A DNA stretch of 64,000 nucleotides from Candidatus Adlerbacteria bacterium. Its GTDB lineage: Bacteria > Patescibacteriota > Minisyncoccia > Phycocordibacterales > SBAW01. The stretch is taken from the NCBI GenBank assembly GCA_028286685.1, contig JAQBRA010000002.1:1073-65072 (forward strand), in the 5' to 3' direction. Below, piece after piece: positions 6,416-60,942 of the stretch. The translations under genes and the position numbers were made by a program. Each line of letters opens with the position of its first letter. The first letter of the stretch is position 1. The notes under the pieces are model-generated. The model worked only from the letters and a program-made list of their open reading frames with translations. It did not search any database and was not told the DNA's origin.

Positions 6416-6730
6416 ATGTCCCAACGACACGAACAAATGCAGGAGCGCATGCGCGAAACCGCGGCCGAGTTCTTGGCCCGCGAGTCCAACCGCCAGTCGA
6501 TGGTTACCGTTACTGCTGCTGAAGTGAGCGGCGACGGCAAGCGCGCCCGCATCTACATCACCGTCATGCCCGACGACTACGAGGAGGAGGCGGTCAAGTT
6601 CGCCAACCGCAACAAGCACGAGTTCGGCATGTATCTCCTTAAGAAAGTGCGCGGCATGCGCATCCCGCAGATGGAGTTCGTCATAGACCGCGGCGAGAAG
6701 ATGCGCCAGCGCCTCGACGAGCTTTCGTAA
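6416..6730 (+). CDS. rbfA: Ribosome-binding factor A
   Basis: 104 aa lying directly after infB, the conserved gene order. Contains RbfA-like MVTVTAAEVSGDGKRARIYITV. Confidence 0.85.
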   Translation: MSQRHEQMQERMRETAAEFLARESNRQSMVTVTAAEVSGDGKRARIYITVMPDDYEEEAVKFANRNKHEFGMYLLKKVRGMRIPQMEFVIDRGEKMRQRLDELS

Positions 6731-6761
6731 GCGCCTCTGGTGCGCTAAAGTGTATAAGGTC

Positions 6762-6833
6762 GGCCACGTAGCCAAGTAGAAAGGCGCGGGACTGCAAATC
6801 CTGTATGCGCGGGTGCGATTCCCGCCGTGGCCT
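6762..6833 (+). tRNA. tRNA-Cys(GCA)
   Basis: Cloverleaf by hand: acceptor GGCCACG/CGTGGCC, anticodon stem CGGGA/TCCTG with loop CTGCAAA, T arm GCGGG-TGCGATT-CCCGC, discriminator T. No encoded CCA. The T-loop is atypical (G at position 55). Confidence 0.85.
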
Positions 6834-6837
6834 CAAG
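6822..6837 (+). repeat. Direct repeat DR1 (tRNA-Cys nt 62-73 plus CAAG)
   Basis: CCGCCGTGGCCTCAAG recurs identically at 6990..7005. Confidence 0.9.
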
Positions 6838-7001
6838 GAGAGTATTCGACGCTGGGGCCACGGAGAGAAGCATGGGATGCTTCTCGTCGGGAATCGCAAG
6901 CCGGAGCGGGCCCCATGCCTCTTGGCATGGGAGCGAGGCAGGGCCGTGCGGCACATGATCCAGTGGTATCATGTGAACGCCTGGCCGATCCGCCGTGGCC
7001 T
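6834..7001 (+). ncRNA. tRNA-3'-linked structured element, copy 1 (host tRNA-Cys), full length
   Basis: 22-nt spacer, then GGCCACG (6856..6862, a copy of tRNA nt 1-7) and hairpin 1 at 6865..6885. The 11-mer CGGGAATCGCA (6888..6898) is antisense to tRNA nt 54-64. Conserved blocks follow with hairpin 2 (6912..6931) and hairpin 3 (6952..6975). The element ends GAT+CCGCCGTGGCCT, a copy of tRNA nt 62-73. It has no coding potential, and homologous copies lie at 8003..8133 and 53792..53961. Confidence 0.65.
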
Positions 7002-7005
7002 CAAG
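6990..7005 (+). repeat. Direct repeat DR2 (second copy of tRNA-Cys 3' end plus CAAG)
   Basis: Identical 16-mer to 6822..6837. Confidence 0.9.
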
Positions 7006-7012
7006 TTTATTT

Positions 7013-7096
7013 GCCGGGGTGATGGAATGGTAGACATAGGGGACTTAAAATCCCCAGAGCTAATATCTCGTGTGGGTTCGAGTCCCACCCCCGGCA
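7013..7096 (+). tRNA. tRNA-Leu(TAA)
   Basis: Acceptor GCCGGGG/CCCCGGC, anticodon stem GGGGA/TCCCC with loop CTTAAAA, long variable arm, T arm GTGGG-TTCGAGT-CCCAC, discriminator A. Confidence 0.9.
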
Positions 7097-7101
7097 CCGG
7101 T

Positions 7102-7980
7102 ATGGATTTTTTATACGGAAAGCTAGAGCAAGCACCTGAGGGTTTTTGTCCACCTGAGATGTGGCCTGAGTACGCGATCGTGTCCCAGCCTACCTGGCCC
7201 TGCACAAGCGAAGGTGTAGGCAAGGACCCCAGCGGCGTACGCTGGGGTCTATGGCCCTTTACCTTTGAAGACTACATAAGCGACAAAGAACCAAACCTGC
7301 AGGAGTCGCGCAAAGGCACACTGGCCCGCAATCGCGTTATTACGTGGGAGCGCGTGCGCAAAACCAACATACCCCGGGGATGGATGCAGTTTAGCAGAGC
7401 ACCCTCGCGCATAGATGGCGTTTTATCCCTAGATCAAGATCAGGATTATACCCTTTCATGGAATAAGAATGCCCGCCGCGATTTGCGAATTTTTAAAGAC
7501 AAAGTGGCAAGCGGGCTCTATGCAGTAGTGCCGATTTCAATGGATGCGTTTGCAGGTGCTTACCGACAAAGCCTGATAGCCCAACGTGTTGATCTCCGCC
7601 GCCTCGAGGATCTTGAGCGCAAGTTTGCACATCCAGCCGCGCAAGGACATATAAAATTATGGGGTGTTCGTAACACTCAAACTGATGCCATAGTAGCGGG
7701 CACTGCTATTAATTATTCTCCTACCTATAAAAACTCGACTCATATTGCGCCCTTTATACTTGAGGAAGGGCGCCACCTCTGCGCCGCAACGGGGCTTATT
7801 GACCATTGGTTTGCAGAATCCATAAAACACGGCTGCACTTTTGCAACCACGCTCAACTTTTGGTTTAAGGGCCAGCCCAAAGAGTGGCGCGGGTTTTCTG
7901 AATTCAAATCGCACTTTGGGTTTCAGTTTGTGGCCTATCCACCTCGGCTCTATAAGTTCGTTTTAGGGAAGATTTTTTAA
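7102..7980 (+). CDS. FemAB/CelD-like GNAT-fold (Acetyltransf_6-like) protein
   Basis: The ORF 6805..7980 reads through two tRNAs and the element, so I take the first plausible ATG at 7102 (292 aa). The C-terminal GFSEFKSHFGFQF resembles the x-Y-x-FK-x-x-FG motif of FemAB/BioF2-like acyltransferases. The gene is visibly AT-richer than its flanks. The start is uncertain because no SD is seen. Confidence 0.45.
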   Translation: MDFLYGKLEQAPEGFCPPEMWPEYAIVSQPTWPCTSEGVGKDPSGVRWGLWPFTFEDYISDKEPNLQESRKGTLARNRVITWERVRKTNIPRGWMQFSRAPSRIDGVLSLDQDQDYTLSWNKNARRDLRIFKDKVASGLYAVVPISMDAFAGAYRQSLIAQRVDLRRLEDLERKFAHPAAQGHIKLWGVRNTQTDAIVAGTAINYSPTYKNSTHIAPFILEEGRHLCAATGLIDHWFAESIKHGCTFATTLNFWFKGQPKEWRGFSEFKSHFGFQFVAYPPRLYKFVLGKIF

Positions 7981-8002
7981 ATTTTTAGTATTTCGCACTA
8001 GT

Positions 8003-8133
8003 GGTCAGGCGTTCAACATGCGCCGTCGCACACATTGCCGCACGACCCTGCCTCGCCGTCCTGCAAGCGTAGGACATGGCTCCGGCTCGCACACAAGCAG
8101 AAAGCCTCCCGCAGGGGAGGCTTTCTGCTTGTG
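8003..8133 (-). ncRNA. tRNA-3'-linked structured element, copy 2 (host tRNA-Lys), core-only variant
   Basis: Read on the minus strand after tRNA-Lys, a 22-bp perfect hairpin comes first. Then follow GAGCCGGAGC, hairpin GTCCT/AGGAC, CGAGGCAGGGTCGTGCGGC, hairpin AATGTGTGC/GCGCATGTT and GAACGCCTGACC. It lacks the tRNA-antisense segments and the clear 3' direct repeat. Confidence 0.55.
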
Positions 8134-8136
8134 TGC
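8089..8136. repeat. 48-nt perfect palindrome (22-bp stem, 4-nt loop) abutting the tRNA-Lys 3' end
   Basis: GCACACAAGCAGAAAGCCTCCC GCAG GGGAGGCTTTCTGCTTGTGTGC. The last 3 nt overlap the tRNA-Lys 3' terminus. Confidence 0.9.
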
Positions 8137-8206
8137 GCCTACCTGGATTCGAACCAGGGACAATCTCCTTAAGAGGGAGCTGCTCTACCAACTGAGCTAT
8201 AGGCGC
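8134..8206 (-). tRNA. tRNA-Lys(CTT)
   Basis: Reverse complement GCGCCTA-TA-GCTC-AGTTGGTA-GAGC-A-GCTCC-CTCTTAA-GGAGA-TTGTC-CCTGG-TTCGAAT-CCAGG-TAGGCGC-A. Confidence 0.88.
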
Positions 8207-8335
8207 GAGTGAGGCTGGCACCAGGAATTCGTTCCTGATTGCCCGAACGAGCGGCCTATATGATTTCTCATATAGGCGCATCCGAACAGGAAAAATATAG
8301 CATAAAAATGGCTTTGCGCATAGAATGGCGATATC

Positions 8336-8417
8336 GCTGGAGTGGCGGAATTGGTATACGCGCCAGTCTTAGGAACTGGTCCCGCAAGGGTTGGAGGTTC
8401 AAGTCCTCTCTCCAGCA
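8336..8417 (+). tRNA. tRNA-Leu(TAG)
   Basis: Acceptor GCTGGAG/CTCCAGC, anticodon stem CCAGT/ACTGG with loop CTTAGGA, variable arm CCC-GCAA-GGG, T arm GGAGG-TTCAAGT-CCTCT, discriminator A. Confidence 0.88.
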
Positions 8418-8427
8418 CAATTTTGAA

Positions 8428-8465
8428 AAGCTAAAATCCCCTTTATTTTAAGGGGATTTTAGCTT
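8428..8465 (+). terminator. Hairpin terminator after tRNA-Leu(TAG)
   Basis: AAGCTAAAATCCCCTT-TATTTT-AAGGGGATTTTAGCTT is a 16-bp perfect stem with a U-rich 3' arm. Confidence 0.6.
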
Positions 8466-8491
8466 GACAAACCCATACAATATGATATAAT
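8464..8491 (+). promoter_or_regulatory. Sigma70-like promoter for the SPFH operon
   Basis: TTGACA (8464..8469), 16-nt spacer, TATAAT (8486..8491), about 80 nt upstream of the ATG at 8574. Confidence 0.6.
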
Positions 8492-8573: not shown

Positions 8574-9734
8574 ATGACACACATGGACGTTGCTCCAGGT
8601 CCGGATATCGTCAGTCGAGATACGGACCGAGTCGACACTTATCCCGCCTACTACTTCCTCGCACTCATTGTGCTTGCGGCGGCCTGGTTTCTGACAGGTC
8701 TCGTATTTTACGGGATACCCGTCGGATACGGCAGCTTAACGATCTACATGAGCACCGTCATCTGGGCTTTGGGAGCCGCGCACTTTGCGACCAGCTTCAG
8801 GATTGTAGAGCCTGACTACTTCGCTGGCGTCCTGGTGTTCGGAACGCCGACCGTTGTCGTGACTGGCAAACCGCTCTTGGTGCCCATGGGAATCTTTAAA
8901 GTCATAGAGATCTCCCGGGGCATCATCCAAATGGAGCTGCCCAACGAGCCGAATCTCATCTTCCGCAAAGAGGATGTAGAGATTGTTCCTCCTGGCATGT
9001 CACCCCCAATCCGGGTGACCTTCAAGAAGGGAGTGGCAGGCGACGATGGCTTTGATCCAAACGATCCGTTTGATGACAGGTCGACTCAAGAAGTGACTCC
9101 TATCATTCGCTTCAGGATTCAAGACGAAGAAGGGTTCTGGACGTTCTTCGTAAGGCTCGGAGGATTCGACGAAGCGCGCAAGCAAGCCGAAGACATGAGC
9201 ATCGCCGTTCTCCAGCAGTGGCTGACAGCACTCACTCTTCGGCAAGCTTTCGCGGGTATCGGAACAATCAACCGACATTACGACGATTACATCCGAGCGC
9301 AGACTAAAGGATGGGGCATCGAGATCGACAGTGCACACATCAAACTTATTGGCCTGTCGCACTCCTTCAATACAGCCATCCAGGATATCCCGCGCGCCAA
9401 AGCCGAAAAACTTGCTCGAACTTCTCGGGCAGAAGCTAAGCAGATTGAGCTCACGCGCGAAGGACTCGGCGAGGCTAATGCCAGAAAAGCACTTCTTTTT
9501 GCTGAAGCCTCTGGTCTTGAAGAGAAAGCGAAGTCACTTGGCGTAACCGGACACGACATGCTCGGTGCCGATACGGCCCGAGCGATCGGAGAGTCCGGCA
9601 ATATGATTATTGTCGGCGCTCAAGGCCTTACGGAAGCCGTTACCGCCGCGTTTGCGGCGGGAAAAGGCATGCAAGGAAAACCCAAACCCACACCCCCTGC
9701 CACTGAACCAGGCACACCACCCACTGGAGCATAG
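8574..9734 (+). CDS. SPFH/Band-7 (stomatin/HflK-like) domain membrane protein
   Basis: 386 aa with two N-terminal TM helices and an SPFH-like core (FRIVEPDYFAGVLVFGTP...PLLVPMGIFKVIEISRG). An Ala/Glu/Lys-rich coiled-coil and a Pro-rich tail follow. Confidence 0.65.
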   Translation: MTHMDVAPGPDIVSRDTDRVDTYPAYYFLALIVLAAAWFLTGLVFYGIPVGYGSLTIYMSTVIWALGAAHFATSFRIVEPDYFAGVLVFGTPTVVVTGKPLLVPMGIFKVIEISRGIIQMELPNEPNLIFRKEDVEIVPPGMSPPIRVTFKKGVAGDDGFDPNDPFDDRSTQEVTPIIRFRIQDEEGFWTFFVRLGGFDEARKQAEDMSIAVLQQWLTALTLRQAFAGIGTINRHYDDYIRAQTKGWGIEIDSAHIKLIGLSHSFNTAIQDIPRAKAEKLARTSRAEAKQIELTREGLGEANARKALLFAEASGLEEKAKSLGVTGHDMLGADTARAIGESGNMIIVGAQGLTEAVTAAFAAGKGMQGKPKPTPPATEPGTPPTGA

Positions 9735-50880: not shown

Positions 50881-50890
50881 GTTCTAGCCA

Positions 50891-50930
50891 TAAAGTAAAA
50901 GACCTGCCGCAGGGCAGGTCTTTTACTTTA
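50891..50930. terminator. Bidirectional terminator
   Basis: TAAAGTAAAAGACCTGCC-GCAG-GGCAGGTCTTTTACTTTA is an 18-bp perfect stem between hsp20 (+) and tRNA-Phe (-). Confidence 0.8.
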
Positions 50931-51006
50931 TGGTGCTTGGGGCCGGGCTCGAACCGGCGACATCTTCCTCTTCAGGGAAGCGCTCTACCAACTGAGCTAC
51001 CCAAGC
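50931..51006 (-). tRNA. tRNA-Phe(GAA), CCA encoded
   Basis: Reverse complement GCTTGGG-TA-GCTC-AGTTGGTA-GAGC-G-CTTCC-CTGAAGA-GGAAG-ATGTC-GCCGG-TTCGAGC-CCGGC-CCCAAGC-A-CCA. Confidence 0.9.
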
Positions 51007-53803: not shown

Positions 53804-53961
53804 ATCGGTCAGGCGTTCGTATAATGCCGTCGCATTATACGCCGCACGACCCTGCCTCGCTCCCGTGCCCGCTGGCACGGGGCCCGCTCCGGCTTTCGAT
53901 TCTCCACACAACCCGCCCCGCGGGTCGTTCATTCCGCACTCTTGTCACTATAGTTCCTCGG
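53792..53961 (-). ncRNA. tRNA-3'-linked structured element, copy 3 (host tRNA-Gly), full length
   Basis: In minus sense a 23-nt spacer comes first. Then follow TGCGGAAT (53938..53931), hairpin 1 ACGACCCGC-GGG-GCGGGTTGT, and GGAGAATCGAA (53905..53895, antisense to tRNA-Gly nt 54-64). The core is the same 99 nt as copy 1, and the element ends GAT+TCCCATTCCGCA. Confidence 0.65.
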
Positions 53962-60649: not shown

Positions 60650-60942
60650 ATTTAGCGCGCGCGTCTGTAAGCCGAGTTCTGTCGTGGGCTGCAATTTATC
60701 TGGGCCCAGAGTCGCCCCTGGGCTCGAGCGGCACTCCGCAGTTGCCTGCGGCACGGCCTTGCACCCGGGTAGGGATTTTGCCGTTTCACCCGAACTAAAT
60801 CGGTTCGTCACTGTTCGCACCCCTTACGACCGCTAATATCGTACGGCAGGCGTTACCTGCTACCTTGCTACTGCAGTTGCCCGCAGTGGGAGCTCGGACT
60901 TTCCTCTCCGTCTTGCGACAGAGCTGCAACCAAACGCGCTTT
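60650..60942 (-). ncRNA. rnpB: RNase P RNA (bacterial type A, compact)
   Basis: Minus sense contains the universally conserved GAGAGGAAAGTCCGAGCTCC (P4 5' strand) and ACAGAACTCGGCTTACAG (P4 3' strand). The ends are estimated from P1/P2-like pairing and are approximate. Confidence 0.85.

Follow-up and report, generated by a model that had tools for sequence, protein, structure and literature searches.

The gene for tRNA-Lys(CTT) lies on the minus strand of the window (the whole 64-kb stretch of DNA analysed here) and is followed directly, on the same strand, by a long hairpin and a compact structured element. The features of this locus, given in the direction of tRNA transcription, and the two sister copies of the element in the window are the following:

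8133..8206 (-): tRNA-Lys(CTT), called by ARAGORN and matched by the Rfam tRNA model at 69.9 bits; its last nucleotides, CGCAC, are the hairpin base
8088..8137 (-): class B tRNA-proximal helix, a 23-bp perfect hairpin with loop CUGC; homologous hairpins in 70 loci
8079..8087 (-): block 1, AGCCGGAGC; invariant columns in alignment A1, pairs 14-16:52-54
8055..8078 (-): variable hairpin 2 (P2b + HP2), CAUGUCCUACGCUUGCAGGACGGC; covariation in 7/7 stem pairs
8037..8054 (-): block 2, GAGGCAGGGTCGTGCGGC (RNA GAGGCAGGGUCGUGCGGC); near-invariant G.U pair (75/75, 78/83) and compensatory changes
8015..8036 (-): hairpin 3, with a conserved GACG loop and the apex GCGACGGC; family alignment and covariation
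8003..8014 (-): block 3, GAACGCCTGACC (RNA GAACGCCUGACC); exact match in the alignment
7993..8003 (-): unit-boundary motif CAC-UA-GUGCGA; the same motif, with recognisable second units, in loci L052, L068, L049, L050 and L063
6835..7003 (+): sister copy of class A after tRNA-Cys, 95 bits
53790..53959 (-): sister copy of class A after tRNA-Gly(CCC), 112.5 bits

The initial annotation had described a mismatch-free 22-bp palindrome at 8089..8136 that overlaps the last 3 nt of the tRNA. The two arms (8089-8110 and 8115-8136) indeed pair with 0 mismatches, and no such pair of arms was seen in 100 shuffles of the window. The perfect stem is actually 23 bp long, with a 4-nt loop (8088-8137), and the overlap, real in itself, covers the last 5 nt of the ARAGORN call rather than 3. 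On the tRNA strand, the GC-rich apex is followed by a U-rich 3' arm (UUUCUGCUUGUGUGCG), whose terminus, GUGCG, is antisense to the tRNA end CGCAC. The copy had also been said to lack tRNA-antisense segments: the T-loop antisense and the small hairpin 1 are absent, but this terminal GTGCG is itself antisense to the tRNA. A search for further copies of the palindrome returned only its own arms within 3 mismatches. Its identity as a REP or MITE repeat was rejected, the palindrome being unique in 64 kb and related hairpins elsewhere being always tRNA-linked and different in sequence.

A single G separates the hairpin from AGCCGGAGC (8087-8079). P2a is built from GCC of block 1 as its 5' strand and from block 2 as its 3' strand, whereas P3a and P3b combine block 2 (5' strands GUCG and GCG) with block 3 (3' strands UGAC and CGC). 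Block 1 also contributes a junction strand, the GGA side of a tandem G.A internal loop and the start of P2b, block 2 contributes the junction AG(G), and the final C of block 3 opens P1. The GCGACGGC octamer occupies 8022-8029(-) and recurs identically in the Gly copy at 53826-53833(-). All of these parts, blocks 1-3 and hairpin 3 with its apex, are present where they had initially been annotated. The sequence 3' of block 3 reads ACUAGUGCGAAAU; GUGUGCG stands ahead of block 1, and CACUAG behind block 3. The CAC of the boundary motif is able to form a 3-bp P1 with the GUG of the hairpin 3' arm, and its GUGCGA repeats the start of a class B unit. The predicted fold of the module strand has an energy of -88.9 kcal/mol (z = -8.9).

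On the other side of the gene, a leader of about 95 nt is conserved in six of ten tRNA-Lys(CTT) loci (window 8254-8277, L063, L069, L102, L114 and L142). Its first element is an acceptor-stem mimic, a hairpin in which the 5' arm (GCGCCUAUA) repeats the initial 9 nt of the tRNA and the 3' arm is similar to the 3' strand of the acceptor; CGCUCGUUCGGGG and a second, A/U-rich hairpin follow, and a TGnTATAWT-like -10 element lies directly 5' of the leader. The segment comprising leader, tRNA-Lys, hairpin and module (window 7985-8300) is inverted relative to the Adlerbacteria locus L063 (2667-3100), in which an ORF, tRNA-Lys, the module, a decayed second unit and tRNA-Leu(TAG) succeed one another on one strand. 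Further rearrangements of these tRNA and module units are found in L026 and L069.

A conserved three-way junction RNA behind tRNA genes

Genomes, one per GTDB species, were scanned with the pattern GGCAGGGNCGTGCGG-N18-30-GAACGCC. Around 55 of the matching loci also carried block 1, and all of these belong to Patescibacteria (Saccharibacteria, Adlerbacteria, Paceibacterota, Nomurabacteria, Kaiserbacteria and Parcubacteria), while some 40 further matches without block 1, in GC-rich genomes, are taken to be chance. A scan of JGI/ENA metagenomes yielded 71 more contigs with the core pattern, and a scan of viral contigs yielded 0 copies of the module. A covariance model (R1) was built from 51 copies (alignment A1) and matched 76 times in the GTDB loci and 91 times in the metagenome loci, corresponding to about 154 non-redundant matches. 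The unfiltered search of the window with this model found three copies only (Lys, Cys and Gly). The Lys copy is matched by the full-length model (7990-8099(-), 94 bits, E = 1e-20), so the block similarity noticed initially is significant under a model-based alignment. It agrees exactly with the consensus blocks AGCCGGAGC, GAGGCAGGGYCGUGCGGC and GAACGCCUGRCC. Two copies (L119 2259-2426 and L126 3365-3533) have an insertion of about 60 nt inside hairpin 2, with the remaining model intact.

The module matches no family of Rfam 15 at the gathering threshold. When matches over 6700-8450 were considered up to E <= 10, only tRNAs and sub-threshold chance matches were returned, mostly miRNA precursor models overlapping the hairpin. 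A full-text literature search found no description of the module either, and the family is apparently undescribed, a novelty that rests on this search and on Rfam 15.

The core is a three-way junction of about 95 nt in which the 5' and 3' flanks form P1. P2a (GCC:GGC) leads through an internal loop (GGA/GA) into P2b and the variable hairpin; P3a (GUCG:UGAC) contains a G.U pair in 75/75 and 78/83 sequences and continues into P3b (GCG:CGC) and hairpin 3, which bears the GACG loop. About 96% of cells are paired in each of the alignments A1, A2 and A3, with double changes in 30-31 of the 35 pairs (A2, A3). None of 500 shuffles equalled the observed pairing values, and slid-register controls were 30-41% paired. 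P1 also covaries, and the Cys copy of the window contains a private compensatory change (U>C / A>G, GGGCCG...CUGGCC). Some 45 invariant or near-invariant nucleotides are concentrated at the three-way junction. The structure is under selection at the RNA level, and the core is under strong purifying selection with covariation. A kissing contact between the CUGC and GACG loops was considered and dismissed for lack of complementarity.

The G.U pairs, among them the near-invariant one, are consistent with the tRNA strand being sense. An antisense-strand riboswitch (an aptamer followed by a terminator on the plus strand) was rejected: the near-invariant G.U would turn into A.C, the Cys copy lies between two plus-strand tRNAs, and the orientation to the tRNA is never reversed.

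The 154 non-redundant matches are linked to tRNA genes in a strictly oriented manner. As many as 120 have a tRNA, a tmRNA or another copy immediately 5' of them on the same strand (110 at most 150 nt downstream of a tRNA, 9 behind another unit and 1 behind the tmRNA of L042), and none of the 154 lies behind an opposite-strand tRNA. The rest comprise 12 copies at locus edges and 22 without an ARAGORN tRNA within 150 nt; several of these 22 appear to follow tRNA 3' halves of intron-containing genes (L072, L156) or unidentified RNA. Both the linkage in cis to tRNA and tmRNA 3' ends and the complementarity to those ends are direct observations. Furthermore, the next tRNA can begin very close to the end of a copy: at -2 nt in L011, 8 nt in L073, 27 nt in L085 and, in the window, 14 nt past the Cys-copy model match, where tRNA-Leu(TAA) starts. 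These internal copies abut the next tRNA and must therefore be transcribed with the tRNAs.

In L042 (6303-7041), two units follow the tmRNA gene, and the first closes with a copy of the tmRNA 3' end that is also the upstream partner of the second. Multiple units also occur in L025 (2958-3441 and 6197-6895) and L073. They include tandem arrays of up to three hairpin and core units behind tRNA-Arg(GCG), and an operon, tRNA-Arg(TCT)-unit(s)-tRNA-Val(TAC)-unit, which L011, L025 and L073 have in common and which carries a diverged core subtype (AGGCACAGC ... GAGCCGGGGUCGCG ... UUGUGAC) whose pairs are kept by compensatory changes. One copy is found behind rplL (L019). Units in L032, L048, L120, L141 and L152, and also in L117, L144 and L163, stand behind conserved non-coding sequence (e.g., ...CCACCACGCACGCGGAGCGUGCGA...), in which neither ARAGORN nor Rfam (the latter including L032, L048 and L152) recognized anything. 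These conserved upstream sequences may be divergent stable RNAs or odd tRNAs.

Two architectures and the tRNA-proximal helix

The family occurs in two architectures. Class A, to which both sister copies in the window belong, often has an ordinary terminator first and continues with a sequence antisense to the acceptor 3' strand, a small hairpin, a T-loop/T-stem antisense, the core and, last, a second copy of the tRNA portion between T-loop and 3' end. In the Cys copy, the acceptor antisense precedes hairpin 1 and the T-loop antisense precedes the core, behind which the 3' part of the tRNA is repeated. In class B, the tRNA is followed by a hairpin of 20-24 bp, 1-3 nt, the core of about 95 nt and a CAC... 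sequence that repeats what stands just after the tRNA; GACCAC then AAAAG..., for example, is found behind the core and also behind the tRNA. Class B stands mostly behind tRNAs that end in ...CAC (63/74, as assigned by a crude class regex). A clean split of the classes by amino acid held in the first 58 copies and, with the same crude regex, was reduced to a mere tendency in the larger set.

The Lys copy fits class B. It has a hairpin of the expected length with the CUGC loop and the base CGCAC:GUGCG, it lies 3' of a same-strand tRNA, and its model match starts 34 nt past the end of tRNA-Lys(CTT), with a class B median of 36 and a class range of 31-42 nt. The marks of class A, namely the GAAUCGAA T-loop antisense before block 1 and CGAUUC/CGAAUC with the acceptor repeat after block 3, are missing from it. 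The segment 8137-7993(-) is, in sum, a complete class B member of a conserved structured-RNA family located 3' of tRNA and tmRNA genes of Patescibacteria (CPR), and this membership, together with a likely function as a tRNA-trailer processing module, is probably the best overall explanation of the locus. The initial annotation had seen in this copy a degenerate 'core-only' variant, a reading that does not hold for a canonical class B unit with a family-typical helix; its expectation that comparing Lys with Cys and Gly would reveal the conserved core proved right, as the Lys copy carries that core.

The hairpin is typical of the family. Its base is made of the last 3-5 nt of the tRNA, including the discriminator. 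Among 70 non-redundant class B copies, which represent numerous CPR lineages and tRNA species, 67 have a stem of 20-24 bp. The loop is CTGC in 41 of these 70 copies and TTGA in 15. Most stems contain 2-4 unpaired nucleotides, mainly in the 5' arm (50 on the 5' arm against 21 on the 3' arm across the family), and five of the 70 are perfect. The Lys hairpin is the most stable of the 70 (predicted -46.9 kcal/mol against a median of -30.8). The stem base co-varies with the tRNA end (CGCAC:GUGCG, GACCAC:GUGGU, GAGCAC:GUGCU, GUCCAC:GUGGA), and across nine orthologous tRNA-Lys(CTT) loci the arm sequences differ while pairing is kept in all. The helix is thus homologous family-wide, with a base that changes together with the tRNA end, and the palindrome is therefore a homologue and not a replacement: the proposal that a recent or inserted palindrome had replaced the 5' part of the element has to be abandoned. 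It is the family's own first helix, which in this copy happens to be perfect. By itself the palindrome is ordinary and terminator-shaped, and the RNA family is the object of interest.

The 3' boundary of the Lys copy is to be reinterpreted in a similar way. The sequence ACTAGTGCGAAA had been taken for a degraded direct repeat of the tRNA end, but it reads CAC-TA-GTGCGA, which is the junction between tandem units elsewhere, and the 3' string ACTAGTGCGA is a vestigial unit junction rather than a decayed tRNA repeat. In tandem arrays (L025, L052, L068, L049, L050, L063), a core is succeeded either by the hairpin of the following unit, with its 5' arm, or by a short CAC-NN-GUGCG joint that runs into another AGCCGGAGC, and the orthologue L063 retains a decayed second unit at the position of the Lys boundary motif. 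Judged from these sequence comparisons, the Lys motif is in all likelihood the vestige of a second tandem unit, a unit joint with nothing behind it.

Duplications and repeats of this kind could also suggest a mobile element, non-autonomous and directed at tRNA 3' ends or terminators, with the tRNA-end repeat as a target duplication and the palindrome as an insertion scar. The perfect direct repeats of 20-25 nt in class A, which run from the T-loop to beyond the tRNA end and include unpaired positions (L003, L017), the tandem arrays, and the tRNA and module rearrangements between related genomes would all suit such an element. However, near-identity is not seen among the copies of one genome: conservation is confined to the junction, with covariation in the stems, as in the three window copies, which differ throughout their hairpins around a common junction. 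Moreover, the same tRNA species tend to bear the same class in Saccharibacteria and Parcubacteria, viral copies are absent from the contigs scanned, and the palindrome is single-copy. We regard a mobile origin as highly improbable. A scan of the three neighbouring ORFs (IF-2, an ORF without a Pfam match and an SPFH protein) revealed no transposase, integrase, recombinase or reverse transcriptase.

Several other identities were considered and discarded. A guide or bridge RNA of IS110 or IS200-605 elements was rejected, as there is no adjacent recombinase or TnpB/IscB gene and the 'guide' and its complement pair together. A group II intron remnant was suggested by the GUGCG start and by a post-terminator position like that of class IIC; this start is not fixed, being GUGGU, GUGCU or GUGGA according to the tRNA end, and a hairpin resembling domain V could not be drawn. 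A guide RNA of the box C/D or H/ACA type lacks its box motifs here, and the target pairing is contiguous. Finally, an intron in the T-loop, with the second repeat as the true 3' half of the tRNA, is contradicted by 2-nt deletions in the second repeats of the window and by their truncation at other loci.

Termination and hairpins outside the family

The palindrome may reasonably be suspected, from its sequence, to be a terminator or an RNase III site, as had been suggested in the initial annotation. In its stronger form, the terminator reading holds that the palindrome is a bidirectional intrinsic terminator of tRNA-Lys and of the convergent ORF ending at 7980, and that the core is an untranscribed or read-through relic unlinked to the hairpin. 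The apex GCCUCCC-CUGC-GGGAGGC is followed by UUUCUGCUU, and the bulges in the family fall chiefly on the 5' arm, leaving the U-tract of the tRNA strand intact. Terminator-like hairpins elsewhere in the window are typically perfect palindromes of 12-17 bp with an A-tract, a GC core and a T-tract, and a 21-bp one is found at a tRNA-Phe without a module. Nevertheless, a simple scan with a terminator consensus did not list the Lys hairpin. The fixed length of 20-24 bp and the conservation of loop and arm sequences across lineages also speak against a terminator alone, as does the strong enrichment of the hairpin at module-bearing tRNAs: a long hairpin touches the tRNA end in 46 of 53 of these, whereas 20 of 56 module-less tRNAs satisfy the same size criterion and only a handful of them are comparably stable. 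Internal copies need read-through for the next tRNA to be expressed, and purifying selection and covariation in the core are unexpected for an untranscribed relic. On balance, a terminator with an unconnected relic behind it is unlikely.

The hairpin and the core are not inseparable. The window tRNA-Phe (50931-51006, minus strand) is directly followed by a 21-bp perfect palindrome (50888-50933) with the same CUGC loop and the apex ACCUGCC; its base is formed by the CCA of the tRNA, and no core module lies behind it. The helix can therefore stand alone, and tRNA 3' maturation is not core-dependent. In another genome (L008), tRNA-Phe has both hairpin and module. Conversely, in the tRNA-Lys(CTT) orthologue of L053 (3223-3395), the core is fused straight to the tRNA 3' end (GGGUGCAC|AGAGGAGUG...) without a hairpin, and tRNA-Leu(TAG) begins 13 nt past this unit.

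At 8428-8491 of the window, a 16-bp perfect terminator-like palindrome behind tRNA-Leu(TAG) is succeeded immediately by a 12/12 consensus promoter (TTGACA-16-TATAAT, with an upstream TG; 8464-8491(+)), ahead of an SPFH-domain ORF at 8574.

Candidate roles at tRNA 3' ends

The most likely role suggested by the sequences is that of a co-transcribed tRNA-trailer processing module. The module would be co-transcribed with the tRNA, because many copies sit between two tRNAs with no room for a promoter. The long helix would hold the tRNA 3' end and its trailer directly against the conserved junction, and would at the same time offer a two-turn duplex with a terminator-shaped apex; at 23 bp, the predicted Lys duplex meets the RNase III length criterion of about two turns of uninterrupted dsRNA. 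The duplex would then be cut, either by the core or by a nuclease specific for double strands, for instance RNase III, and tRNA precursor and module would come apart. Next, the freed 3' arm would pair with the trailer copy located downstream (CAC..., or in class A the repeat that runs from the T-loop to the 3' end) and close P1, and the tRNA end would be released for RNase Z or for exonuclease trimming and CCA addition. Taken as a whole, this chain of co-transcription, helix formation, cleavage and P1 closure is put forward tentatively, and its being correct in every step is somewhat doubtful.

Several observations sit uneasily with this scheme. If termination at the Lys apex were efficient, transcription of the core would be rare. 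The tRNA-Phe of the window has the hairpin without the module, and the orthologue in L053 has the module without the hairpin. Moreover, the Lys P1 has only 3 bp (GUG:CAC), to be set against a predicted -47 kcal/mol for the hairpin. Arrays of up to three units (L025) fit a dosage or trans role, or selfish duplication, better than a purely cis role. The processing, terminator, ribozyme, switch and mobile-element readings are, several of them, not mutually exclusive.

One further possibility is that the core itself does the cutting, as a new self-cleaving or tRNA-end-processing ribozyme to which the helix presents the tRNA 3' end, or its downstream CAC... mimic, as substrate. The roughly 45 (near-)invariant nucleotides at the junction with their near-invariant G.U, the many copies per small genome, the identical junctions of tandem units, and the position of the junction, always 1-3 nt from the helix containing the tRNA terminal nucleotides and fused to the tRNA in L053, are all in keeping with catalysis. 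In these respects (a size of about 100 nt, junction-centred invariant nucleotides, many copies and tandems), the module is reminiscent of small self-cleaving ribozymes such as hammerhead, twister, HDV-like and hatchet, although it differs in topology and conserved bases and lacks any Rfam match. Against a ribozyme stand the lack of likeness to Rfam ribozyme families even at E <= 10, a cleavage site that cannot be named from the sequence, and the hairpin-only tRNAs, which evidently mature without a core. This makes a ribozyme quite unlikely. Hammerhead, HDV-like, hairpin ribozyme and ZTP-like folds were threaded by eye and rejected, their topology or G.U position being unsuited.

A riboswitch-like device would exploit the alternative pairings instead. 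The segment just 5' of the junction has two mutually exclusive partners, the tRNA end with its trailer or the downstream repeat, and a ligand or protein at the junction could decide whether the hairpin 3' arm blocks maturation or forms P1. This layout (X - X' - core - X2) with its mutually exclusive helices is present in both classes, P1 covaries, and in the in silico fold of the full transcript the hairpin takes the last bases of the acceptor stem; co-transcriptional folding of the tRNA may prevent this invasion. However, the class B hairpin is far more stable than P1, P1 is absent from several variants (L011, L073), and neither a candidate ligand nor a gene-specific regulatory logic is apparent. 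A switch of this type is improbable.

In a broader formulation, the core would be a new CPR-specific catalytic or ligand-sensing RNA acting in cis on the 3' ends of tRNA and tmRNA precursors, a conjecture from sequence to which we attach some weight while considering it more doubtful than not. Its action would consist either in cutting or releasing the trailer or in gating maturation as the tRNA-end helix gives way to P1 and vice versa, and it would be an RNA substitute for part of the tRNA 3'-processing machinery in reduced genomes.

The processing module shares elements with several known systems. Like rho-independent tRNA terminators, it has a GC-rich apical stem, a tetraloop and a U-rich 3' arm opposite an A-rich 5' arm directly after the tRNA; unlike them, its helix has a fixed length of 20-24 bp, reaches the acceptor end, conserves arm and loop across phyla, has to be read through in internal copies, and precedes a conserved junction RNA. 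The RNase III stems of rRNA operons likewise place a duplex of 20 bp or more beside a stable RNA, whose release could follow from cutting it; in the module, this duplex is a local hairpin confined to the 3' side, not a pairing of leader with trailer, and its cleavage is putative. T-box leaders also base-pair with a tRNA 3' end, but they are located upstream of mRNAs and their target is mature tRNA, recognized in trans through NCCA, whereas the module would pair in cis with the acceptor end of the precursor and its trailer.

Functional RNAs are known to arise from the trailers or spacers of tRNA transcripts, as in 3'ETS-leuZ of E. coli, mascRNA and plant tRNA-snoRNA units, and tRNA-linked small RNAs such as mascRNA and the plant tRNA-snoRNA units are released by RNase P/Z. 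The module resembles all three in deriving from a tRNA trailer or spacer. To our knowledge, they are single loci with neither a conserved three-way junction nor tRNA-specific complementarity, in which the module differs. Within the same phylum, structured RNAs are tied to tRNA genes in another form: group I introns in Patescibacteria tRNA genes occupy the anticodon loop at position 35/36 and are bona fide group I ribozymes (PMC13011429). The module lies outside the tRNA and is not a group I RNA according to Rfam; the module-bearing tRNAs of L072 and L156 seem to be group I intron-containing genes.

The family was found here only in Patescibacteria, where it stands behind a large share of tRNA genes and also behind tmRNA, and genomes of about 1 Mb rarely retain a dozen elements of 100-150 nt without reason. 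Should the core process or gate tRNA 3' ends, tRNA biogenesis would include a new RNA-based step; should it instead be expressed from tRNA operons to act in trans, an uncultivated radiation would have a new and abundant ncRNA. The two architectural classes provide a comparative handle on which contacts matter. The window also encodes an RNase P RNA (class A) at 60652-60942(-), which scores 104.8 bits against a gathering threshold of 100 and spans 291 nt of the 367-position model, being a reduced RNase P RNA.
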